DNA from: a virus
Length of the DNA: 64,000 nt
Virus record (IMG/VR): IMGVR_UViG_3300036828_000771
Span: 13,590 to 77,589 of that record
Direction: 5' to 3' (one strand)
The position numbers were made by a program, and so were the translations under genes. Numbering within the stretch: the stretch's first letter is position 1; every line of letters begins with the position of its first letter. The notes under the pieces are model-generated. The model worked only from the letters and a program-made list of their open reading frames with translations, ran no database searches and was not told the origin of the DNA. This document shows positions 13,165 through 63,960 of the stretch, piece by piece.

Positions 13165-13595
13165 CAGTTGGGTCTCTTCAGCCGGGTGAGATCGCCATCG
13201 AGCGGCTCGATGAACTCGACGATCAGCGCACCGTCCTCGGTGCGCGAAGTCCACGACGGCAGATTCTCCAACGGGTGCTTGAAGCCGAACTCCTGAAGGA
13301 TCACCTGCACCGCTACCGGGTTCGGGCCGAAGCCGGGCTGCGCGTCCTCGACGCTGATGCTGATGTGCGCGCACACGCAGTCCTCGCGCTGCTTCTCCTG
13401 CGTATAGGTCACATGGAAGCCGCGCGGGATCGTGATCGTGAAGGCGTTGTTGGCGTCGTCGGTCTCGACGCCGGCCGCGCGCCGCTCACCACCAGCGCGC
13501 ACGGCCTCCAGCGGTGTGATGTGGCGGCTGGCCTTGTCGATCAGGTGGCTGATGCGCAGGCGAGCGCCGTCGTCGATCAGGAGCGCGCGGGTCAT
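13164..13595 (-). CDS. Hypothetical protein
   Basis: Start MTRALLID; packed between neighbours. Confidence 0.6.
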   Translation of the reverse strand: MTRALLIDDGARLRISHLIDKASRHITPLEAVRAGGERRAAGVETDDANNAFTITIPRGFHVTYTQEKQREDCVCAHISISVEDAQPGFGPNPVAVQVILQEFGFKHPLENLPSWTSRTEDGALIVEFIEPLDGDLTRLKRPN

Positions 13596-52320: not shown

Positions 52321-53937
52321 ATGGCGACACCGACGACCGTCATCATCAACTCGTCGGCGATGGGCTCGGCTTTGTCGTCGATGCTGACGACGAACGACGA
52401 CATCCAGCCGGGGAGTTCGCCGGGCTACGAGCTTTGCAAGACGATCTACCAGTACCATCCGCTGGGCGCGAAGCTGGTCGAGCGGCCCATCGAGATCGCG
52501 CAGAGCCAAGAGCGCGAGATCAGCGTGCCGGACTCGCCCGAGTCGCGCGTGGTCGAGGCGTTCAAGAACGAGCAGACGCGGCTCGGTGTGAACAACCACA
52601 TCAGGAACGTGATGCGGCTGGCGCGGGTCTACGGCGTGGCATCGCTCGGCGTGGTCGAGGACGGCAAGAAGTTCGCCGATCCGCTCGACTTTGAGAATCT
52701 GTTCAAGTCGCAGATCACCTTCAACGTCTACGATCCGCTGAACACGGCGGGCTCGCTGGTGCTGCATCAGGACCCGCTGGCCATCGACTTCCAGCATGTC
52801 ATGCAGATCGCGGTGAACGGCCAGCCGTTCCATCGCAGCCGGTCCATCGTGGTGATGAACGAGGAGCCGATCTACATCAGCTACACCAGTTCGGCGTTCG
52901 GCTTCGTCGGCCGCAGCGTCTACCAGCGCTCGCTGTTCCCGCTGAAGTCGTTCCTGCAATGCGTGATCACCGACGATCTGGTGGCGCGCAAGGTCGGCGT
53001 GCTGGTGGCGAAGATCAAGCAGCCCGGCTCGATCATCAACAACGCGATGATCAAGCTGTTCGGCCAGAAGCGCGCGGTGGTGAAGGAGGCGGAGACCGGC
53101 GGCGTGATCTCGATCTCGCCCGAGGAAGACATCGCCTCGCTGAACTTCCAGAACGCGGACGGCCCTTACGAGGTGGCGCGCAAGAACATCATGGAGAACA
53201 TCGCCAGTGCGGCGGGCATGCCGGCGAAGCTCTTGACCGAGGAGACATTCGCCGAGGGCTTCGGTGAAGGCACCGAGGACGCCAAGGCCATCGCGCGCTA
53301 CATCGACAGCGTGCGGACCTCGATGCAGCCGCTGTACGACTTCTTCGACCGGATCGTGATGTACCGGGCGTGGAATCCGAACTTCTACAAGATCATCCAG
53401 AGCCAGTACCCGGAGTACAAAACCATCCCGTATCAGCAGGCGTTCTATCGGTGGAAGAACAGCTTCTCGTGCAAGTGGCCGTCGCTGCTGACCGAGCCCG
53501 ATTCGGAACTGGTGAAGGTCGACGAGGTGCGGCTGCGCGCGGTGATGGCGTGGGTGCAGTTGATGATGCCGATAGCCGATCCCGACAACAAGGCGCGGGT
53601 CATCGAATGGGCGGTCGACAACTTCAACGCGCTCAAGTTCCTGTTCGATACGCCGCTGGTGATGGACTACGAGGAGCTTGCGAACTACGAGCCACCGCAG
53701 CCGGCGATGGGCATGCAGCCGCCCGGGCAGAAGCCCGGGCAGCCGGGCCAGCAACCGGGGCAGGGCGGGCAGAAGCAGAACATGATGGGAGGCATGGGCG
53801 GCGGCAACTTTGCGACGCTGCCCAAGAGCCACGCCAACGATGAGGCTGTGGCGGAGTTCACCAAGGCGGTCTCGCGCATGCTGGAGTCGAAGGGCCAGCG
53901 TCGCCTGAAACTGATCGAGAGCAAGCGCGAGAAGTAG
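52321..53937 (+). CDS. Portal protein (DUF1073-type)
   Basis: HPLGAKL, ARVYG, FHRSR, GRSVYQR, IASAAGMPAKLL and GTED motifs; position after terL. Confidence 0.88.
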   Translation: MATPTTVIINSSAMGSALSSMLTTNDDIQPGSSPGYELCKTIYQYHPLGAKLVERPIEIAQSQEREISVPDSPESRVVEAFKNEQTRLGVNNHIRNVMRLARVYGVASLGVVEDGKKFADPLDFENLFKSQITFNVYDPLNTAGSLVLHQDPLAIDFQHVMQIAVNGQPFHRSRSIVVMNEEPIYISYTSSAFGFVGRSVYQRSLFPLKSFLQCVITDDLVARKVGVLVAKIKQPGSIINNAMIKLFGQKRAVVKEAETGGVISISPEEDIASLNFQNADGPYEVARKNIMENIASAAGMPAKLLTEETFAEGFGEGTEDAKAIARYIDSVRTSMQPLYDFFDRIVMYRAWNPNFYKIIQSQYPEYKTIPYQQAFYRWKNSFSCKWPSLLTEPDSELVKVDEVRLRAVMAWVQLMMPIADPDNKARVIEWAVDNFNALKFLFDTPLVMDYEELANYEPPQPAMGMQPPGQKPGQPGQQPGQGGQKQNMMGGMGGGNFATLPKSHANDEAVAEFTKAVSRMLESKGQRRLKLIESKREK

Positions 53938-54128: not shown

Positions 54129-54968
54129 ATGGCGTCCGCATCTGCCGAGTTCATGGAGGTGCTGACCGAAGCCATCGCCGACTTCACCGAGCATGGCTTC
54201 GACAATATCGAGCGGCTGGTGATGTGGCAGGAGAAGCTGCGCGATGCGGCGCTGCGCTCGACGACACCGCCCAAGGTGATGGTCGACCTGCTGCGGGCGG
54301 CGCTGCGCAAGGTCTACGAGAAGCTGGTCGAGCAGGGGCGCGTCGTGAAGATGCACCCGGGGATTGGCCAGTTCACGCTGTCGAAGCTGAAGCCCGAACT
54401 GCACGCTGTGCTCGACCGTCACATCCATGCGTCGGCCGACCTGATCAAGCTCAATCGCGAGACGAGGATTGAACAGACATTACAGCGGTTCAGCGGCTGG
54501 GCATCATCGATTCCGGCGGGTGGCACGGATCAGGCGGATAAGCGCAAGACGGTGAAGGAGATCAAGCGCGGCATTGCTGGATTACAGTTCGAGGAGCGGC
54601 GGGTGCTGATCGATCAGGGCCACAAGCTCAACGCGGCGATCTCGCGCACCATCGCGGAAGGTGGTGGGGCGCTGGGCGGCTACTGGTTCAGCCACTGGCG
54701 TCAGCCGGGCTACGACTATCGTGAGGACCACAAGGAGCGCGACGGCGTGTTCTACGTGCAGCGCGACAACTGGGCGATGGAGCAGGGGCTGATGAAGCTG
54801 GGGGGACATGAGTACACCGACGAGATCACGCAGCCCGGCGAAGAGGTCTACTGCCGCTGCCTGTACCGCTACGCCTACAGCCTGCGCGACATTCCCGAGG
54901 AGTGCATGACGGCGCTGGGCACCAAGAAGCTGGCCGAGGTCCGCGCCTACATCGCGGGCGAACTTTAA
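54129..54968 (+). CDS. MuF/gp7-like head morphogenesis protein
   Basis: IDQGHKL, W.SHWR, REDHKERDG and QPGEEVYCRC motifs. Confidence 0.88.
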   Translation: MASASAEFMEVLTEAIADFTEHGFDNIERLVMWQEKLRDAALRSTTPPKVMVDLLRAALRKVYEKLVEQGRVVKMHPGIGQFTLSKLKPELHAVLDRHIHASADLIKLNRETRIEQTLQRFSGWASSIPAGGTDQADKRKTVKEIKRGIAGLQFEERRVLIDQGHKLNAAISRTIAEGGGALGGYWFSHWRQPGYDYREDHKERDGVFYVQRDNWAMEQGLMKLGGHEYTDEITQPGEEVYCRCLYRYAYSLRDIPEECMTALGTKKLAEVRAYIAGEL

Positions 54969-54983
54969 CCGCAGGAGACGATC

Positions 54984-55247
54984 ATGAGCGACACAGGACC
55001 GACCAAGACGCTGGCCGAGTGGATGGACTACGAGAAGACCGAGGCGGCGAAGCCAGCGACGGACGAACCCGAGGCAACGGCACCCAGCGAACCGATCAGC
55101 GACGAGCAGGCCGCGAAGTTCATGCATCACTACGGGGTGGGCGCGGAGCAGAAGATGGATCGCGCGACGCTCGACGCGCGCATGAAGGCGCTCAAAGACC
55201 TGCCCGACCCGGAGCCGCCACAGCCAGCCGCCGCGCCATCGGCCTAG
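54984..55247 (+). CDS. Hypothetical head-region protein
   Basis: RBS AGGAG. Confidence 0.6.
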   Translation: MSDTGPTKTLAEWMDYEKTEAAKPATDEPEATAPSEPISDEQAAKFMHHYGVGAEQKMDRATLDARMKALKDLPDPEPPQPAAAPSA

Positions 55248-55493: not shown

Positions 55494-55805
55494 ATGCCGC
55501 TGACCGACAAGGGCGAGAAGATCATGTCCTCAATGAAGGGCACCTACCCGAGCGACAAGAAGGCGAAGGAGGTTTTCTATGCCTCGAAGAACGCCGGCAA
55601 GATCAGCGGTGTCGACGAGGGCGACATGGGCGTCGATGCGGGCGAGGTGCAGCACGCCTTCGACGAGACCGTGGACAAGACGCACAAGCTGGCGGCGCGG
55701 GTGAGCGCGATTGAAGCGCATGATGATCGGTCGGCCGAGGAGCACGCGAAGGCGGCGGAGTTCCACGAGGAAGAAGCCGAGCGGGGCGATGACTGCGCCA
55801 CCTGA
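55494..55805 (+). CDS. Small head-region protein carrying the heptad tag
   Basis: MPLTDKGEKIM...VFYASKNAGKI; RBS GGAGG. Confidence 0.7.
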   Translation: MPLTDKGEKIMSSMKGTYPSDKKAKEVFYASKNAGKISGVDEGDMGVDAGEVQHAFDETVDKTHKLAARVSAIEAHDDRSAEEHAKAAEFHEEEAERGDDCAT

Positions 55806-58800
55806 TCTTGAGGTTGCGGCCGGTCTGTTCGAGGTGTTCGACCGTCGTCTGGATGGACTGCTCGCGCGCCTCGACTTCGATCCGAGCGAGCCACGCGACG
55901 AGTCAGGGAAATGGACGGACGGCGGTGGCGGTGCTGCTGCCCTAAAAACCGGCATGAAGCCTGCCGAGCCCGAGGCGTTCGTCAAAGCGCGCGACAGATC
56001 GACACGCCAGCAGTTCCTGTCGGCTCACCCGGCGTCTGAACTTGCCGACCACACGCTGTTCACGAACGAAGAAGGAACGGTCGGAATATCGGTCGACCCC
56101 AAGGGCGACATCCAGAACGTGTTCAACAATGGCGGCCCTAAAGGTGGGGCATCAAAGGCTATGGTGGCGGCGATTGCGGCAGGCGGTCGCACGCTCGATT
56201 GCTACGACGGCTTCCTGCCAGCCTATTACAGCCAGTTCGGCTTTGCCGAAGACCAGCGCATGAAGTTCAACCGGGACTTCGCGCCGCCGGGCTGGGACTT
56301 CGCGAAGGCCGGCACCCCTGACATTGTATTCATGTCATGGCGTGGCTATATGGGGGATGGAGGTGCGCAAGGTGCCCTAAATAGTGCCGCATCGCACAGG
56401 AAGCCGCCGCCTCCAGAAAGGAGCGAGGTCTATGGCGACGATTGGGATGCAGCCAAAGAGCGCAGCCGAACAGCCGCAGCCGCAGCGGACTCCGGAAGAA
56501 CTCGCTCTGATAGCGTGGCTGGAATCGGGCGGGCGGAAGCTGACGGAGCAGGAGATCAACGTGGCTCTGGAGCAGGCGCGGGCGCTGGGCGAAATCTAGG
56601 GCTTCGCGCCGACGACGATCCGACCGACAGCGACCTGACGGTTGCTGCGGATGCCATCAGTGGGATGATGGCCCGGCTGGACGCATGGGACGAGAGCAGC
56701 CACCCGCGCGGCCAGCCGGACAATAAGGGCCAGTTCGTCACCAAGGGCGGTGAGACGGCTGGCGGGCTGACCATCCAGAAGACCGGGCAAGGCATGTACG
56801 ACGCGCGGGTCAACGGCGACTACGCCGGGCATGCGCACGTCGCCGAGGGCCATCCGTTCCTGTCGTCGATGCACGTCCATGAGGATCATGCCGGCAAGGG
56901 CATCGGCGCGGCGCTGCACGATCACGTCGAGAAGGAGCTTGGTCGGCCGCTGGTGCCGAATCCGCTGCACATGACCGACGAGCACAAGGAGATGTGGCAG
57001 AAGCGGCTGGCCGAGATGCCGCCCACGGATGCGGCGGCGCGCCTGACCGAGGCACGCAAGATCGGCAGCGACAAGTTCGGGCGCAAGCAGACCGACATCG
57101 ACAAGCTGCACAACAACCTGCGCGCCGTGGTCGGCGGCATGCAGCATCCCGGCGAAGGTTATAGCGCCCAGAGCTACATCGATGCGCTGGGCCGCATCCA
57201 CACCAGCAATGTGCAAGACGCGGCGCGCGCGCTGTACGAGAAGAAGTCGGTGGTGCTGAGCCAGCCTCGGCAGGTGTCGACGCTGATTGAGCACCTTGGC
57301 AAGGTGGCGGCCGAGTTCATCCGGCTGGGCGGCAAGGCCCCGACATTCGATCTGTGCAAGGTGAGCGTCGAGGGCACCAACCTGTTCTGCGCCGAGTCGA
57401 AGGGCATCCCGCGCGTGCAGATGCCGCAACTGGACAAGGAAGCGACCAAGCGGTTCCGCAAGTACCTCGAAGCCAAGGGCTTCAAGATCACGCGCGAGAA
57501 GGAGAAGGCGAGCTACCTGCGCGCGACGCAGGACGAACTGAACGGCGCGAAGGTGGCGGCGAACGCAGCGTCCTACGACAAGGGCAAGGAGCCGCGCCGC
57601 ATCATCGTGAGCCGCGACAACTACATCCTCGACGGCCATCACAAGTGGGCCGCGATGCTGGGCATCGACTCGCGTGACGGCAAGTTCGGCGACAAGGACA
57701 TGAAGGTCTCGCGGGTCGACGCATCGATCACGGAGTTGCTGGCGGAGACGCAGGCGTTCGGGGCGACCACCGGGGCGAGCGTCGAATCGGGAACACCCGG
57801 CGGCGCTCAGCCAGCAGCGCGTACCGATGAAGGGCTGACGTTCGACATCCCCGACTTGCGCGGGCGGGTTCGCCCGCTCCAGTTCATGCGCACCGACGCC
57901 TACAATCCGAACGAGGCGCGCATCCCCAAGGGCGAGCCCGGTGGCGGGCAGTGGACATCAGGCGGCGGCGGGCTGGGCTTCACCAAGAACGAGAGCAAGA
58001 GCGGCCCGTCGTACACCATCTGGAACCATGATGAGGGCAATCTGTCGGTCCAGACCGCCACGGGAAAATGGCGTTGGAGCGGGAAAGAGGGCGGCGACAT
58101 CGAGACGACGTATGGCGACGACGAGGAGTCGCTGAACAAGTTCATCAACGCGCACAAGGACGCGCTGAAGGTCAAGCCGCACGACATCAATATGGAAGTC
58201 GCCGATGTCGGCGGCGACGAATGGAACAAGGCGACCGGCAAGCGGATGGAGTTCGAGTACGTGAAGGCGGCGCATCACCTCGACAAGCTGGTGCGCGACA
58301 AGGTCGCGTCGGGCGAGGTCGACCCCGCGCCCGCACCCGAGAAGGACGAGGACGAGGAGCCGCCTGAGAACGAGTACGGCTATTCGTACCCGCCCGATGA
58401 CTGGGACATGCTGTCGGGCGAGCATCAGTCGGACGCAGAGAAGCAGTGGATCGAGAACAACAAGAGCGACTACGTCGAGAGCGAGGAGCAGAACTGGCAC
58501 GAGAACGGCGACGCCAAGGCGCAGGCCGCGAGCCAGTTGGCCGACGACATCACCAACGGCAACCCGGGCGGTGAGTTCTTCGAGGACGCGACCGAGGAAT
58601 GGGTCAAGGAGTGGAACGAGGAGCACCCAGACGATCCGGTGCGCTACACGCCGCACGACCTGTTCATGTCGACGGTCGTCGAGGACGGCAGCAAGTACAA
58701 GGACTGGGGCGCGGGCAGCAGCAACGCCGGCCAGCCGGACATCTCGTTCACCGACGATATGCTCGACAAGCCGCTGGGCTACGAGCCGCCGGACCCGGCG

Positions 58801-61800
58801 CAGATGAACCTGCCCGGTGTGCCCGAGCACATCCCGCCGAAGCCCGGCCAGTTTTTCACCGACGATCAGAAGGCATCGCTGACCGCGCATTTGGAGAAGG
58901 CGTTCGACGATGAGGCCGACAAGCAGGAATACAATCTCGAAGCGCCTGACTACATCAGCGAGCAGGCCGAAGAACAGATGGGCGAAGTCTGGGATCAGAT
59001 GGACGACAAGCAGAAGTTCAAGATCGCAAAGGACGTGCTCACCAGCGGCATCTTCGAGGAGCCCGGCCCGGCGCAGCAGGACGAGGAGGTCGACGAGGAT
59101 TCGGACGCGATCATCGCCGAGCCGCCGAAGCACTACGACCCGCTGAACACCGGGCACGACATGACCGACTACCGGCGCACGCAGGCGCTCGCGCGCACGG
59201 TGTCCATCGACCGGGGTGTCGAGCTTCTGATGGAGCGCGGCGTGCTCAAGACGGGCAAGCCGCACACATGGCAGGACACGGCGAAGATACTGAAGGACGG
59301 CGAGCGCTTCACACCACAGCAGATCGCCGATGCAGTGGGCCGGAATGCAAACCCGGAGTTGGCTGAGCAACAGGGCGAGCATGGCTTGGCCATGCAGTTG
59401 CGGCTGACCAAGGAATTGGCGAACACATCTGTGGCGCTGGGTCTTGCGATGACGCCCTACGCTGTGGCGCTTCAGCTAGACGGGCCGGGAAAGACCAAGC
59501 TGTCGCGCGACTTCGCGGCGAAGGTGGTGAACGCGATGAAGCCCAACATCGAAGGCGAAGGCGAGAACACCTACCTGAACGGCGTCGGCTTCGACGAGGA
59601 GAAGCTGAAGGAGTCGCTGGGCAGGCCCGGCGCAAGGGAATACTTCGACGCGGTGAAAGACGACATCGGCGCGAAGCTGAACGCCTACCTCAATGATCGG
59701 CACCATGAACTGGCGGCAAAGGGCGCGCAGTACAATTTAGGGCGCGAGCACACCATCGGCGATACGCTTGCCAAGTTTACCGAGGCGCAGGCTAAGTGGG
59801 ATGCGGAGTCGCTGGGCAAGCTGATCGATCAGGGGACACCCAGCACCTCGGTGTCGCCGGACCTGCAAGAGGCGGCGCGTTACGCCTACACGCTGTACTC
59901 GTCAGGACCCGTCGAGGACATCGCCTACAAGGCCAAGGGCTACCCGAACCCGAAGCCGATGCCGACCGAAGCGAAGCGCGCCTCGGCCATGTACGCCGGG
60001 AAGCTGGCGATGGCGCTGCGCATGAGGCGCGGGGTGGACGACAAGCCGACCGAAGTGACGTTCGATCAGCCGACCCTCGACAAGGAGATGCACGATCCGT
60101 GGGAGCGCGACTACTTCCAGCAGAACAAGGAGAAGCTGGTGCAGGCGGCCTCGCAGTACCTGTACGACCGGCACAATGCGCTGGCCGAAGACACCGGCAA
60201 GGGTGTCGCCGATCTGCGCGCGGCGGTGAAGCGGCGCGACCGTGAGATGTGGGAAGCGTGGAAGGGAAGCTCGACCTCGACGCTGGGCAAGCTGATCCAG
60301 ATCGGCTCGGCGGATGAACTGGGCGGCCGGGTGCGCATGCCCCAGAGAGTCAAGCTCGACTTCGACGAGGACAAGGTCGAGATGCCGAACTTCGGCGAGG
60401 TGCTGGCCGCCAATGCGGTGCCAGCCGCGACGCTCCCCGGCGGCCATGTGGTGAACGTCAAGGCAGCGCTGACCGAGCAACTGAGCAACAACGTCATGGA
60501 CCTGCCGGTCGCGGATCGCATGACGTTGAACGACAAGTTTGTGAAACTCTCGAAAGAGCAGGGCCATCCATACGAGAAGCTGGACTGGTCTTTGACGACG
60601 GCGGAGTTGGTTGGCCACGCCAAGCTCAGCTACAACCCGGAGAAGGGACCGACGACCGGCGGGCTCGTGATCAAGGTGAACGAGGACGACCTGTCGCCGC
60701 CCGCGAAGTTCCTGTGGCAGTCGCGACGGCCTGAGATCAAGACAGCGATGCTGAAGGGCATGCTGTCCGAGGCGAACGCGGTGCATAGGGATCGCGTCAC
60801 CGTGGCGAAGAGAGCGGCGATCCTGAAGGCTGGCGGCTACAAGCCGCTGCCGCTGTCGAGCACGCTGGACGCCGCCAAGAGCGGAGTCGGTTCGGCCACG
60901 TCGCGCATCCGCAACCAGTTGGATGATGTTCTGAGGGGGATACCGGAGATCAAGCCGGACTACGCCCACGATATATCGACGAAGCTCGGCGATCCGTCAT
61001 CGTGGTCGACGGCGGTGAAGATCGGCGACGACGACAAGTTCCATTTCGATGGCGACAAGGTGATCGCCAACTTCTTGGCGAGGAACCCGAACTACAACCC
61101 CGAGACCAATCCGGCCACCGGCCCTGTGCGCGAGGCAATGACGACCTCGCTGAACGCGCTGAAGGAGCGCAAGGCGGAGATCGAGAAGGCACTCCAGACG
61201 GGGATGCAGGTCTACCAGTCCGTGCGCGAGGACAACGCCAAGTCGGCGGCGGAGCAGAAGTACCTCGATGCGAATCAGTACGCATGGGAGCCGAAGGAGG
61301 AACTGATCGCGACGGCCGACAAGACCCTGAAGGACATCGGCGGCTACGCGGGCCTGAAGGCACTGCTGCGGGCGAAGTGGGAGACCACGCAGTGGCTGCT
61401 CGACAAGGCGGGCATCCACACAGTGAAGGTCTACCGGGGCATGGAGATTCCATCGCTCGACAATACCCGCGAGAAGGCGGTGATCGGCAAGAGCGGGCAT
61501 GACTACAAGAGCCTGCCCGAGGCCAACATCATTCGGCCCGGCGCGCACTCGACCTCGCTCGACGCCAAGGTCTCGAACGGCTGGCGCGGCAACAACCGCA
61601 TCGTGCTGCGCATGGAAGTGCCGCGCACGGCAGTGCTCTCGATCCCGGCCTATGGCATCAACGTCCACGGCGAACACGAACTGGTGGTGACGGGCACGGC
61701 GTGGAAGAACTGGGACGCATGGCGCACGACCGCGCCGACGTTCGATCAGATTCCGATAGCGTCGCATGTGCACAAGCCCGAGGGCGTACCAGCGACGCCA

Positions 61801-61815
61801 ACCGAGAGTCAGTGA
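55789..61815 (+). CDS. Large polyvalent protein: GNAT-like, GNAT, ParB-like, acidic region and C-terminal R-S-E ADP-ribosyltransferase
   Basis: LDCYDGFLPAYYSQFGF; VHEDHAGKGIGAAL; ATQ...IIVSRDNYILDGHHKWAA; VYRG...STS...GEHELVV; downstream of MuF. Confidence 0.8.
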   Translation: MTAPPDLEVAAGLFEVFDRRLDGLLARLDFDPSEPRDESGKWTDGGGGAAALKTGMKPAEPEAFVKARDRSTRQQFLSAHPASELADHTLFTNEEGTVGISVDPKGDIQNVFNNGGPKGGASKAMVAAIAAGGRTLDCYDGFLPAYYSQFGFAEDQRMKFNRDFAPPGWDFAKAGTPDIVFMSWRGYMGDGGAQGALNSAASHRKPPPPERSEVYGDDWDAAKERSRTAAAAADSGRTRSDSVAGIGRAEADGAGDQRGSGAGAGAGRNLGLRADDDPTDSDLTVAADAISGMMARLDAWDESSHPRGQPDNKGQFVTKGGETAGGLTIQKTGQGMYDARVNGDYAGHAHVAEGHPFLSSMHVHEDHAGKGIGAALHDHVEKELGRPLVPNPLHMTDEHKEMWQKRLAEMPPTDAAARLTEARKIGSDKFGRKQTDIDKLHNNLRAVVGGMQHPGEGYSAQSYIDALGRIHTSNVQDAARALYEKKSVVLSQPRQVSTLIEHLGKVAAEFIRLGGKAPTFDLCKVSVEGTNLFCAESKGIPRVQMPQLDKEATKRFRKYLEAKGFKITREKEKASYLRATQDELNGAKVAANAASYDKGKEPRRIIVSRDNYILDGHHKWAAMLGIDSRDGKFGDKDMKVSRVDASITELLAETQAFGATTGASVESGTPGGAQPAARTDEGLTFDIPDLRGRVRPLQFMRTDAYNPNEARIPKGEPGGGQWTSGGGGLGFTKNESKSGPSYTIWNHDEGNLSVQTATGKWRWSGKEGGDIETTYGDDEESLNKFINAHKDALKVKPHDINMEVADVGGDEWNKATGKRMEFEYVKAAHHLDKLVRDKVASGEVDPAPAPEKDEDEEPPENEYGYSYPPDDWDMLSGEHQSDAEKQWIENNKSDYVESEEQNWHENGDAKAQAASQLADDITNGNPGGEFFEDATEEWVKEWNEEHPDDPVRYTPHDLFMSTVVEDGSKYKDWGAGSSNAGQPDISFTDDMLDKPLGYEPPDPAQMNLPGVPEHIPPKPGQFFTDDQKASLTAHLEKAFDDEADKQEYNLEAPDYISEQAEEQMGEVWDQMDDKQKFKIAKDVLTSGIFEEPGPAQQDEEVDEDSDAIIAEPPKHYDPLNTGHDMTDYRRTQALARTVSIDRGVELLMERGVLKTGKPHTWQDTAKILKDGERFTPQQIADAVGRNANPELAEQQGEHGLAMQLRLTKELANTSVALGLAMTPYAVALQLDGPGKTKLSRDFAAKVVNAMKPNIEGEGENTYLNGVGFDEEKLKESLGRPGAREYFDAVKDDIGAKLNAYLNDRHHELAAKGAQYNLGREHTIGDTLAKFTEAQAKWDAESLGKLIDQGTPSTSVSPDLQEAARYAYTLYSSGPVEDIAYKAKGYPNPKPMPTEAKRASAMYAGKLAMALRMRRGVDDKPTEVTFDQPTLDKEMHDPWERDYFQQNKEKLVQAASQYLYDRHNALAEDTGKGVADLRAAVKRRDREMWEAWKGSSTSTLGKLIQIGSADELGGRVRMPQRVKLDFDEDKVEMPNFGEVLAANAVPAATLPGGHVVNVKAALTEQLSNNVMDLPVADRMTLNDKFVKLSKEQGHPYEKLDWSLTTAELVGHAKLSYNPEKGPTTGGLVIKVNEDDLSPPAKFLWQSRRPEIKTAMLKGMLSEANAVHRDRVTVAKRAAILKAGGYKPLPLSSTLDAAKSGVGSATSRIRNQLDDVLRGIPEIKPDYAHDISTKLGDPSSWSTAVKIGDDDKFHFDGDKVIANFLARNPNYNPETNPATGPVREAMTTSLNALKERKAEIEKALQTGMQVYQSVREDNAKSAAEQKYLDANQYAWEPKEELIATADKTLKDIGGYAGLKALLRAKWETTQWLLDKAGIHTVKVYRGMEIPSLDNTREKAVIGKSGHDYKSLPEANIIRPGAHSTSLDAKVSNGWRGNNRIVLRMEVPRTAVLSIPAYGINVHGEHELVVTGTAWKNWDAWRTTAPTFDQIPIASHVHKPEGVPATPTESQ
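56432..56599 (+). CDS. Nested out-of-frame small gene inside the polyprotein linker
   Basis: RBS AAAGGAG/GAGG, ATG, GC3-rich codons and an amphipathic helical product. Confidence 0.55.
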   Translation: MATIGMQPKSAAEQPQPQRTPEELALIAWLESGGRKLTEQEINVALEQARALGEI

Positions 61816-61816
61816 C

Positions 61817-62026
61817 ATGGCTGACAACGACATCGACATCGCGCTGGCCGACACCATCGCGGGACGACACTGGCTGCATCCGGCGGTGCGCCATCACGGC
61901 AACCCGCGCATGGAGGCGATCCGCGCGAAGTACCGGGCGCTGCATCAGGCTGGCAAGATGATGGGCAAGATCGGCGACAAGACCGACAAGCTGACGAAGC
62001 GGCTCGACACGCTGGATGACAAATGA
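61817..62026 (+). CDS. Small head-region protein carrying the heptad tag
   Basis: Ends MGKIGDKTDKLTKRLDTLDDK; ATGA overlap with the next gene. Confidence 0.6.
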   Translation: MADNDIDIALADTIAGRHWLHPAVRHHGNPRMEAIRAKYRALHQAGKMMGKIGDKTDKLTKRLDTLDDK

Positions 62027-63960
62027 TTCGCGCAGCCGGCGTCATGATCGTGAGCGCTGGCGGCAAGGTGCTGTTTCTGAAGCGGTCGAAGTCGGGCGAT
62101 CAGGCTGGCAAATGGTGCTTTCCGGGCGGCGGCATCGAAGGCAACGAAACGCCAAAGGAAGCGGCGATCAGAGAACTGGACGAGGAGGCAGGAGTCCGGG
62201 CGGAGCCTGAGCATCTGACGTTCTGGACGCGGCGGGTGAAGGACGACGTGGACTTCACGACGTTCATCGTGCGCAACGTGGTCGAGTTCGAGCCCTACCT
62301 CAACGCCGAGCACACCCAGTACCTGTGGGCCGAGCCGCACCGGGCACCGCGCCCGCTCCATCCCGGCTGCGAGGTCTGCCTCGACAAGCTGGAGAGTGAC
62401 GAGCTTTGGGTGGCGCGGCAGATGCGCGACGGCGAGCTTCACGGCCCGCAGCAGTACGAGAATCTGTGGCTGTTCGCGCTGCGCATCACCGGCACCGGGC
62501 AGGCGTTCCGGCACAAGTGGGACGAGTACGTCATCCGTGATCCGGCGCTCTACCTGAACGAGGACTTTCTCGCGCGCTGCGCCGGCCTGCCGGTAATCCT
62601 CGAACATCCCGAGACCTCGGTGCTGAACACCGAAGAGTTCAAGGACCGCACGGTTGGTACGATCATGCTGCCCTATATCAAGGGCGACGAAGTCTGGGGC
62701 ATCGCGAAGATTTACGATGCCGATGCCGTCAACATCATGCTGAACGAGCAGTTGTCCACGTCACCGGCGGTGGTGTGGAGAGACCCAGACGTGAACTCCG
62801 AGCAGGAACTTGAGAACGGACTGACATCCCTGCGCGAAGGAAAGCCGACTTTGGTGGATCACCTCGCCATCTGCAAGGTCGGCGTCTGGGACAAAGGCGG
62901 GAAACCCGAGGGCATAGACTTAGGAGGCCTAATCATGCCTGATAATGCGAAGCCAAAAGTCGCCGCCGATGATGCAGACAAGGGCGGCATGGGAAGATTG
63001 CTGAAGGGCCTCGAAGCGCTCAACAGCAAGATCGATTCCATCTTCACGCGCGTCGACTCCATCGAGGCCAAGCAGGCCAAGAAGAAGGCGCGCGCCGATG
63101 ATGACGATGAAGGGGGCGGCGAGGACAAGCCGAAGCCGCCGCTGCCGACGCCCGGTGCTGAAGGCGAGCCGTCTCCTGTCGCGGCCGACAAGAAGCGGAA
63201 GGACGACGATCAAGCCGTCCCGCCGAAGGCGAAGGCTGCGCCAGTGCCACCGATGCCACCGCCCAAGCTCGATGACGATGATGACGACGAGGGCGAGGAC
63301 AAGAAGATGCCGCCGGAGTTCCTGAAGAACATCAAGAAGGACGACGACGACGATGAAGGCGACGACAAGGAGGAGAAGGAAGAGGAGGAGAAGGAAGTCG
63401 CCGACGACGCCGGTGGGAAGAAGGTCGCATGGGGCAAGGGCAAGTCGCGCGCCGATGGCACGGTGCGCGTCAAGACCACCGACCTGAACGCCCTGCGGCG
63501 CGAACTCGCCGAGGTCCGGTCTCGCCTGCCCAAGGATCGCGGCGACGAGGACGCGGCTGCCATGGCCGAGGATCAGGCGCGCTGCGATTCGGTGGCGCTG
63601 ATGTTCGGTGCGTCGGCCCCTCGGCCGCTCGCCGGTGAGGCGCGCGCTGCCTACCGGCTGCGCATGTTGGAGCCGTACAAGAAGTACAGCGCCAACTGGA
63701 AGGACGTGCCGCTTGAAGTGGTGGCCGTCGATGAGGCCGCATTGGGCGTGGTCGAGAAGCAGATTTACGACACTGCTCGACTGGCCGCGCGCGATCCCGC
63801 CAGCGTCCCGGTGGGCACGCTGCGGGCTGTTCAAACCCGCACGCCCACGGGTCATCTTGAGACCCGCTTCATGGGCAGCCCGAGCGTCTGGCTGAACCGT
63901 GGCACCCCCAACCGGCGCTACGTCAAAGCCATCAACCTGATGAAGGATAACCGGCCATGA
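62023..63960 (+). CDS. Nudix hydrolase - DUF2213 prohead protease - scaffold fusion
   Basis: Intact Nudix box GGIEGNETPKEAAIRELDEEAGV; PVILEHP, LSTSP, DHLAIC..GVWD; acidic, charged scaffold tail. Confidence 0.85.
   Translation: MIRAAGVMIVSAGGKVLFLKRSKSGDQAGKWCFPGGGIEGNETPKEAAIRELDEEAGVRAEPEHLTFWTRRVKDDVDFTTFIVRNVVEFEPYLNAEHTQYLWAEPHRAPRPLHPGCEVCLDKLESDELWVARQMRDGELHGPQQYENLWLFALRITGTGQAFRHKWDEYVIRDPALYLNEDFLARCAGLPVILEHPETSVLNTEEFKDRTVGTIMLPYIKGDEVWGIAKIYDADAVNIMLNEQLSTSPAVVWRDPDVNSEQELENGLTSLREGKPTLVDHLAICKVGVWDKGGKPEGIDLGGLIMPDNAKPKVAADDADKGGMGRLLKGLEALNSKIDSIFTRVDSIEAKQAKKKARADDDDEGGGEDKPKPPLPTPGAEGEPSPVAADKKRKDDDQAVPPKAKAAPVPPMPPPKLDDDDDDEGEDKKMPPEFLKNIKKDDDDDEGDDKEEKEEEEKEVADDAGGKKVAWGKGKSRADGTVRVKTTDLNALRRELAEVRSRLPKDRGDEDAAAMAEDQARCDSVALMFGASAPRPLAGEARAAYRLRMLEPYKKYSANWKDVPLEVVAVDEAALGVVEKQIYDTARLAARDPASVPVGTLRAVQTRTPTGHLETRFMGSPSVWLNRGTPNRRYVKAINLMKDNRP
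62935..63960 (+). CDS. Probable in-frame nested scaffold protein
   Basis: Strong internal RBS TAGGAGG upstream of in-frame ATG (MPDNAKPK). Confidence 0.6.
   Translation: MPDNAKPKVAADDADKGGMGRLLKGLEALNSKIDSIFTRVDSIEAKQAKKKARADDDDEGGGEDKPKPPLPTPGAEGEPSPVAADKKRKDDDQAVPPKAKAAPVPPMPPPKLDDDDDDEGEDKKMPPEFLKNIKKDDDDDEGDDKEEKEEEEKEVADDAGGKKVAWGKGKSRADGTVRVKTTDLNALRRELAEVRSRLPKDRGDEDAAAMAEDQARCDSVALMFGASAPRPLAGEARAAYRLRMLEPYKKYSANWKDVPLEVVAVDEAALGVVEKQIYDTARLAARDPASVPVGTLRAVQTRTPTGHLETRFMGSPSVWLNRGTPNRRYVKAINLMKDNRP

Follow-up and report, generated by a model that had tools for sequence, protein, structure and literature searches.

The 64,000-nucleotide stretch of viral DNA analysed here (positions 13,590 to 77,589 of IMG/VR virus record IMGVR_UViG_3300036828_000771; referred to as the window) carries a set of head genes, all on the + strand, that includes a fusion of a Nudix hydrolase, a prohead protease and a scaffold. 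A short heptad segment was found right after the protease domain of this fusion, and copies of the segment (the tag) were identified in two small proteins and, probably, at the N-terminus of a very large polyvalent protein encoded between them. The original prediction listed five such segments, one in the scaffold, one in each small protein and two in the polyvalent protein, and read them as an address that brings cargo into the prohead. All five peptides are present in the sequence, the translations at their coordinates being identical to those quoted, and the pattern described for them was correct, with Arg14 invariant and Asp16 present in four of the five. The mostly hydrophobic positions 1, 4, 8, 11, 15 and 18 correspond to heptad positions a and d, with Arg14 at g and Glu19 at e. 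The carrier genes and their features are as follows (window coordinates).

55494..55805, + strand: small protein of 103 amino acids, with an N-terminal 'MPLTxKGxKI...VFYASKN' module followed by the tag
55659..55715, + strand: tag copy in the 103-amino-acid protein, ending R-VSAIE (10.3 bits)
55789..61815, + strand: putative polyvalent cargo protein of ~2008 amino acids; likely start ATG 55789, the open reading frame (ORF) opening at TTG 55711
55828..55881, + strand: segment 1, an N-terminal tag-like helix of the polyvalent protein (...LLARLDFD; ..LLARLDFDPSE), based on orthology with the related locus L003
56635..56736, + strand: segment 2 and the HPR junction that follows it (..ARLDAWDESSHPRGQPDNKGQF), between the first domain and the GNAT domain of the polyvalent protein (12.1 bits)
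61817..62026, + strand: small protein of 69 amino acids (86 from ATG 61766), with an 'HWLHP...IRAKYRA' core and a C-terminal tag
61961..62017, + strand: tag copy at the C-terminus of the 69-amino-acid protein (..KLTKRLDTLD), the best match of the proteome (23.3 bits)
62023..63960, + strand: Nudix hydrolase-prohead protease-scaffold fusion of 645 amino acids, matching NUDIX and phrog_6216
62401..62922, + strand: prohead serine protease domain, DUF2213-related, with the assemblin/T4 gp21 fold
62922..62937, + strand: internal Shine-Dalgarno sequence AGGAGG and ATG 62935 (Met305), the probable start of a nested scaffold
62989..63066, + strand: scaffold tag helix (MGRLLKGLEALNSKIDSIFTRVDSIE), which includes the originally listed segment 63010-63066
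63580..63594, + strand: RCDSV, a further conserved motif of the type [RK]-x-D-S-V, located in a helix within the C-terminal scaffold domain

The segments were scored with an independent matrix, built from 26 non-redundant post-protease motif copies in the scaffold homologues of other phages, with none taken from the window. The window proteome (20,728 positions) was scanned, with shuffled proteomes as the control, and the best matches ranked as listed.

Rank 1: tail of the 69/86-amino-acid protein, 23.3 bits (shuffles, 0)
Rank 2: the phage's own scaffold, 22.0 bits (shuffles, 0)
Rank 3: the heptad ahead of the scaffold tag, 13.1 bits (shuffles, 0.02)
Rank 4: polyvalent protein, segment 2, 12.1 bits (shuffles, 0.06)
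Rank 5: 103-amino-acid protein, 10.3 bits (shuffles, 0.1)
Rank 6: next best match, 8.2 bits (shuffles, 0.34)

Among the five best matches, two fall in the scaffold and three in cargo segments, of which there are four. Leave-one-out matrices placed every omitted segment 1st to 3rd of the 20,728 positions, in a test that is biased by the original hand-picking of the segments.

Comparison with related phages was based on 80 loci encoding homologues of the scaffold protein, of which 59 remained after dereplication. In 58 of these 59, the motif was found in the scaffold zone, right after the protease domain, and its consensus, shortly after the GVWDKGG of that domain, reads G-x-K-L-D-x-I-L-x-x-L-x-x-L-x-K-R-M-D-A-M-E; the core 19 residues can be given as LDxILxxLDxLxKRMDAME. 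In an alignment of 21 homologues (35-47% identity), D345 was invariant and R343 was at least 90% conserved, and the two are among the very few conserved residues outside the folded domains. Glu occupies tag position 19 in 45 of 66 scaffold tags, a family ending RMDA[MF]E. Protease and scaffold are encoded by separate genes in at least 11 dereplicated loci; there, the proteases end in a motif copy of their own (..FAERLDKFMTRRDLMVR, then the stop codon) and the scaffolds begin with one (..LADAIAKMDALTKRMDALE). As such proteases must be co-assembled, their copies may be regarded as a natural positive control. In 21 of 58 loci, about a third, a match of at least 12 bits was also present in at least one ORF of the 3 kb upstream; these unrelated proteins are encoded between MuF and the protease. 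The density of matches per 10,000 positions was ~3 upstream and 56 in the scaffold zone, compared to at most 0.27 elsewhere, and 160 matches lay on the + strand versus 1 on the - strand. Five complete related genomes, scanned in six frames (~335,000 positions), gave no match of at least 12 bits outside the scaffold gene, and over six whole genomes the motif is essentially absent from other places. Across the relatives, the tag was found at protease C-termini, at the N-termini of split scaffolds and in unrelated upstream proteins, and its carriers comprise at least eight different proteins, with sizes including 78 to 570 amino acids. These data establish that the motif is conserved and specific and that it recurs on non-homologous proteins encoded nearby. 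One carrier, a 414-amino-acid tagged protein upstream of the protease gene (L028:3-1247), contains a match to PF04957, the ribosome modulation factor domain, that passes the cut-off (E 2.4e-7), and may be a packaged translation modulator.

The two small proteins illustrate how the tag is distributed. The family of the 103-amino-acid protein is the commonest upstream carrier (example tag ..CDALAKRLDAFE), and in many loci orthologues are encoded a short way upstream of the protease gene. A tag of at least 12 bits was found downstream of the N-terminal module in 38 of 100 homologues, the others having different tails or none, and close homologues have RCDAIE or RCDALE at the R-VSAIE site. A tblastn search with this protein gave one weak match. 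Homologues of the 69-amino-acid protein keep the HWLHP core, and the tag is mostly missing from them. Because it is present or absent within both families, the tag behaves as a movable module. In L003, the orthologues of both small proteins have tag-like tails (..RRMKKLD and ..RKLDAMVKK), the orthologue of the 69-amino-acid protein ending ..GRKLDAMVKK. The small proteins of the window and of L003 have S or K in place of Asp16 but retain R-h-x-x-h-[ED]. A 1236-amino-acid database protein, P0101, has 17 repeats of the HWLHP segment, which spans residues 13-32 in the 69-amino-acid protein. In phage PB1, gp20 is a 68-amino-acid ORF between MuF and the DUF2213 protease (L083:4277-4483), and tagged proteins of three other loci (L012, L018 and L054) begin with the same N-terminal module, 'MPL..GTS...KQAVAIAYS'.

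The fusion protein matched Pfam NUDIX (E 3.8e-18) and, over its full length, phrog_6216 (E 5.9e-134). In an AlphaFold2 (AF2) model of the fusion, residues 1-125 form the Nudix domain and 127-300 the beta-rich protease. A long helix (323-360) follows, then a disordered stretch (361-482), and residues 483-626 fold into a C-terminal domain. DUF2213 (PF09979) matched 13 of the 21 homologues (best E 1.8e-8); the window protein itself scored 16.3 bits, under the 22-bit cut-off. His195, Ser245, Ser247 and His280 are invariant in the 21 homologues, and, by analogy, His195-Ser247-His280 would form the catalytic triad. A fold search with the AF2 model of the protease domain alone (predicted template modelling score, 0.72) gave T4 gp21 as the best match (5JBL; Z 8.2, 130 residues, root-mean-square deviation 4.0, Foldseek probability 0.94), followed by the proteases of Kaposi's sarcoma-associated herpesvirus, Epstein-Barr virus, varicella-zoster virus and human cytomegalovirus; a Z of 8.2 is modestly over background. 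With the full-length model, the search returned Nudix enzymes alone, and phmmer and hidden Markov model searches of the protease domain against PDB sequences gave no match. The identification of a prohead protease made in the original prediction is sound, and its T4 gp21/assemblin fold is established.

The same gene probably encodes a second product. A perfect AGGAGG lies 7 nt ahead of the in-frame ATG 62935, and the Met305 that it specifies is kept in 19 of the 21 homologues; the remaining two have Val, which permits a GTG start. Many relatives encode the scaffold as an ORF of its own, whose start lies just ahead of the tag. Because of the AGGAGG and the conservation of Met305, a nested 341-amino-acid scaffold protein that begins at Met305, 18 residues before the tag, is likely; it would mirror the split genes of the relatives. 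Further downstream, D522 of the RCDSV motif is at least 90% conserved in the 21-sequence alignment, and D522, S523 and V524 are invariant in a 3-sequence alignment; this motif could be a second protease site. Some homologues carry extra modules ahead of the Nudix domain, one a PBECR1 nuclease domain (E 4.3e-9) and two DUF6321. The protease-scaffold protein may therefore itself be a carrier of swappable enzymes.

The polyvalent protein contains matches to phrog_2563 (residues 106-210), Pfam GNAT (357-410) and ParB-like/phrog_2859 (532-685). In its ParB-like part, it has sequence matches to internal virion proteins of Pseudomonas podophages. No Pfam match was obtained for its C-terminal third at E up to 1; by eye, the C-terminus (61000-61815) has the look of an R-S-E ADP-ribosyltransferase (..YRG.., ..STS.., ..EHE..), unconfirmed by Pfam. 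Evidence on segment 1 came from the closest relative, L003 (65% identity), whose polyvalent protein of 1626 amino acids has the N-terminus ..KIEALLARMDGFDPE. Among 25,708 positions, the best matches of this N-terminus were the tail of L003's own split protease, which ends ..KIEHLLARMDAVFPE (score 48), and the L003 scaffold tag (30), with noise at 22 or below. Segment 1 is supported by its orthology with this N-terminus, itself a near-copy of the L003 protease tail, and is probably a tag copy. Three junctions of the type 'HPR/EPR ... G-[KQ]-[FW] ... GGG' (55882-55932, 56692-56736 and 57889-57954) divide the protein. The same junction motif, with the consensus ..ADAEFKESDHPRxxDGKFGSGGG, links N-terminal add-on modules to the Nudix domain in several related loci (L015, L030, L038, L044, L053 and L076).

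The remaining features of the locus are listed here.

52321-53937, + strand: portal gene
54129..54968, + strand: MuF-like head morphogenesis protein (phrog_324 'head morphogenesis', E 2.1e-24)
54984-55247: ORF of 87 amino acids between the MuF-like gene and that of the 103-amino-acid protein, with a coding-like G+C content at third codon positions (GC3) of 0.85
57889..57954, + strand: third HPR-type junction of the polyvalent protein (RTDAYNPNEAR...GGGQW), read from the translation, with no heptad helix ahead of it

In two cultured relatives, Pantoea phage PdC23 and Shewanella phage QDWS, the MuF gene directly adjoins the Nudix-protease-scaffold gene. Because nothing lies between the two genes in these phages, the four ORFs found between them in the window are taken as an insert of candidate cargo, with the MuF-like gene as its upstream border. 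The polyvalent ORF lies 821 bases downstream of the end of the MuF-like gene, with two small ORFs between. The 87-amino-acid ORF contains a weak tag-like stretch (..LDARMKALKDL), to which the scaffold matrix gives just -4.7 bits. The window forms the final 64 kb of a virus record that consists of a single contig of 77.6 kb, and the capsid gene (PF09950/DUF2184) is located at the contig start. Megablast against cultured phages returned no close relative.

The best explanation, which we regard as reasonably probable, is that the tag is a scaffold helix whose copies load their carriers into the prohead. The motif would be the N-terminal oligomerisation helix of the head scaffold, with two to three phi-D-x-phi heptads, ending R(g)-h(a)-D-x-h(d)-E(e). 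The scaffold would probably be made twice from one gene, as the nested 341-amino-acid short form and as the long form fused to the Nudix enzyme and the protease; since both forms would bear the helix, they could co-assemble and so bring the two enzymes into the prohead. Copies of the helix would have been acquired by the two small proteins and by the N-terminus of the ~2000-residue polyvalent effector and, in relatives, by separately encoded proteases and varied unrelated proteins. We infer that these copies pair with the scaffold helices and join their bundles under the capsomers, so that the carriers are built into the prohead. The protease would then destroy the scaffold, while the cargo would stay inside and be ejected with the DNA; the tag itself may be removed at a later step. 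The original claim that cargo proteins copy the scaffold helix to enter the prohead has comparative support, and the two segments of the polyvalent protein are its weak part. The observation is largely real and its reading as a loading tag plausible.

Two comparisons bear on such putative bundles. A trimerisation motif, Arg(g)-h(a)-x-x-h(d)-Glu(e), was described by Kammerer and co-workers (PMC3653964), with 'R-LDALE' cited as an example. In sequence as well as in heptad phase, the final six residues of the tag agree with this motif; the scaffold (RVDSIE) and the 103-amino-acid protein (RVSAIE) match exactly, the 69-amino-acid protein (RLDTLD) has Asp for Glu, and the copies in the polyvalent protein do not fit. 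The motif leaves position 16 free, so that Ser is tolerated there in the 103-amino-acid protein. It is, however, a general structural determinant and no phage system, and neither the Asp at heptad position b nor the protease tails that lack the Glu are covered by it. The second comparison, a structural precedent, is with Pseudomonas phage Pa193. There, a pentameric bundle lies below every penton and is made by a post-protease helix (..KAILARLEG..) of gp24, a DUF2213 'scaffolding protein' (PDB 9B40); density of trimer-like appearance below the hexons was left unassigned (PMC11456595). The two phages have head modules of the same type, consisting of MuF, a DUF2213 protein, a decoration protein and a DUF2184/PF09950 capsid protein, the major capsid protein of the window phage being of the same family (PF09950) as that of Pa193. 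The ..ILARLEG.. of gp24 recalls ..LLARLD..; no tagged cargo has been described for Pa193. PB1/Pa193 was considered as a second, cultured example of the system and was rejected, as the similarity of the gp20 tail to the gp22 helix was just rank 5 of 23.9k positions and not significant.

Several observations weigh against the loading of carriers through a shared scaffold helix. Two of the five window segments, both in the polyvalent protein, are weak or ambiguous. Segment 1 fails the independent matrix (-1.8 bits). Segment 2 aligns with the L003 sequence ..ILRSAAADDFVEEDHPR, which is without RxD, and fits the pre-HPR consensus [RK]xDAx[FW]xExxHPR of the 'HPR...GxF' junctions in other loci. For these two reasons it was assigned to a separate HPR junction motif, and its role as a loading tag is doubtful. 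The invariant Asp at heptad position b is unexplained by a coiled-coil core, and the tails of the separately encoded proteases lack Glu at e. In the AF2 monomer model, the tag helix (323-360) has a predicted local distance difference test score below 50. Homology between the tag and the Pa193 helix was not demonstrable, as the matrix does not select the helix in PB1 gp22, and an hhalign comparison of that protein with the family covered just the catalytic-His region. No co-variation of the cargo tags with the scaffold tag of their own phage was detected (mean score 32.3, versus 29.3 for other phages), a result that speaks neither for nor against pairing. Packaging of the tagged proteins, here or in relatives, is so far a prediction from comparison.

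One alternative is that R-x-D-[AS]-phi-E is a protease site, at which cleavage would free the protease from the scaffold and trim the neighbouring proteins, with loading achieved by other means, for instance via MuF, the portal or the HPR junction. The motif lies exactly at the boundary between protease and scaffold, and the invariance of Asp345 and near-invariance of Arg343 go beyond the needs of a coiled coil. A second [RK]xDSV in the C-terminal domain of the scaffold brings to mind the R and M sites that form a pair in the substrates of herpesvirus assemblins, and [RK]ADA precedes the HPR junctions too. Enzymes with a gp21-like fold cut after Glu, with a small or aliphatic residue at P3 (PMC10052503), and the tag ends [AS]-phi-E. 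However, a strict 3-4 spacing of hydrophobic residues over 19 residues, together with a predicted helix, is untypical of a protease site, and at the extreme C-terminus of the split proteases and of the 69-amino-acid protein a cut would remove 1 to 3 residues. The loss of Asp16 in the small proteins of the window and L003, where R-h-x-x-h-[ED] is kept, also argues against such a site, and overall we consider it unlikely. The same substitution disfavours the original proposal that the protease cuts after RxD, as do the RxD counts, which were 10 versus 9.3 expected in the polyvalent protein and 6 versus 4.3 in the scaffold protein; the claimed clustering of RxD sites in linkers was not above chance, and RxD was rejected as an over-represented cut motif. 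The longer [RK]xD[AS] was likewise not enriched over composition in the scaffold or polyvalent protein. T4-type proteases cut after Glu, which makes the Glu that ends the tag a candidate cut site no worse than RxD; the tag ending [AS]-phi-[ED] would be compatible with Glu-specific enzymes of the gp21 type. A role as a protease site alongside that of a loading tag is conceivable.

A second alternative, to which we likewise assign a low probability, is that the helix docks directly on the inner capsid surface or the portal, in the manner of encapsulin cargo-loading peptides or the tail of the HK97 protease, and does not pair with the scaffold. A fragment of Pa193 gp24 touches the capsid A-domains by many salt bridges, and the Asp residues at positions 2, 9 and 16 of the tag, all at heptad position b, would line up in one exposed stripe, a possible contact for a basic patch of the shell. 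A common third partner would also suit the missing co-variation between cargo and scaffold tags. On the other hand, the tag-like helix of Pa193 makes a bundle and does not face the shell, and the scaffold has a separate, well-conserved, folded C-terminal domain, which is the usual coat-binding part. The suggestion that there is no shared function, the segments being generic amphipathic helices, local duplications or chance resemblances and the neighbours ordinary assembly factors or non-virion proteins, is the least credible and quite improbable: the five segments were indeed chosen after the fact, segment 1 fails the matrix, another motif covers segment 2 and the PB1 gp20/gp22 look-alike is at chance, but the independent ranks of the window segments, the strand bias, the five whole genomes free of matches outside scaffold genes and the retention of the tag in orthologous small proteins at many loci largely refute it for the scaffold and the two small proteins.

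Loading through a shared scaffold helix would resemble known systems in part. Nested or overlapping protease and scaffold genes that share a co-assembly region are found in lambda (C/Nu3), Mu (I/Z) and the herpesviruses (UL26/UL26.5). In these systems, as is proposed here on the strength of the conserved internal start, the protease enters the prohead by means of scaffold sequence. There, the protease alone shares that sequence, by in-frame overlap, whereas here a short piece of the scaffold appears to have been copied onto separate genes, namely those of the split proteases, the small proteins and the polyvalent effector. The capsid-targeting sequence (CTS) of T4, present on the internal proteins IPI-III and Alt (Mullaney and Black 1996, as cited in PMC10052503), likewise consists of a short helical peptide. 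It is borne by otherwise unrelated proteins, which travel in the head and are injected, and a gp21-fold protease is encoded alongside; the putative cargo here includes effector-type enzymes. Like the CTS, the tag is common to several non-homologous proteins of one phage, here the scaffold, both small proteins and, probably, the polyvalent protein at its N-terminus. The CTS is strictly N-terminal, spans ~10-19 residues, ends in an (L/I)xE cut site and was shown by experiment to load foreign proteins. The tag has 19-26 heptad residues, is a copy of the scaffold's N-terminal helix, and is known from sequence alone. Unlike the CTS, it can be C-terminal (69-amino-acid protein, split proteases) or internal (103-amino-acid protein), and an N-terminal position was seen only for the polyvalent protein and in some relatives. 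The tag would thus work like the T4 CTS but is not a member of that class, as it is longer, apparently scaffold-derived and found at any position.

The polyvalent proteins were described by Iyer, Burroughs, Anand, de Souza and Aravind in 2017 (PMC5512222), who inferred their packaging from gene context and proposed a metallopeptidase for their processing. The protein in the window is of the same kind: a single polypeptide, encoded next to the portal and MuF genes, combines GNAT, ParB-like and further domains, and it is expected to be packaged and injected. The text of that paper makes no mention of a scaffold, a coiled coil or an HPR motif, and the tag would provide a concrete loading route that is absent from it. 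No prior description of a tag copied from a scaffold, of DUF2213 biology or of the HPR motif was found in the open-access literature.

It is conceivable, at chances slightly below even, that DUF2213-type head modules in general use a portable loading tag of ~20 residues, copied from the scaffold helix and borne by proteins that range from 70-residue peptides to 2000-residue effectors and include the protease itself; all of them would be incorporated into scaffold bundles below the capsomers and passed on to the next host. The loading of large injected proteins into heads is known for a few models, such as the CTS of T4, the Dar proteins of P1 and the fusion of cargo to MuF or the portal. If true, the scaffold-copy tag would amount to a simple and testable rule for loading in a large group of phages, most of them uncultured, and would account for the scaffold-like helix that ends their separately encoded proteases. 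The tag would be interchangeable across a wide group of phages, as it does not co-vary with the scaffold of its own phage, and would be a candidate for packaging chosen proteins into capsids. Virion-borne effectors would then be predictable from their sequences.

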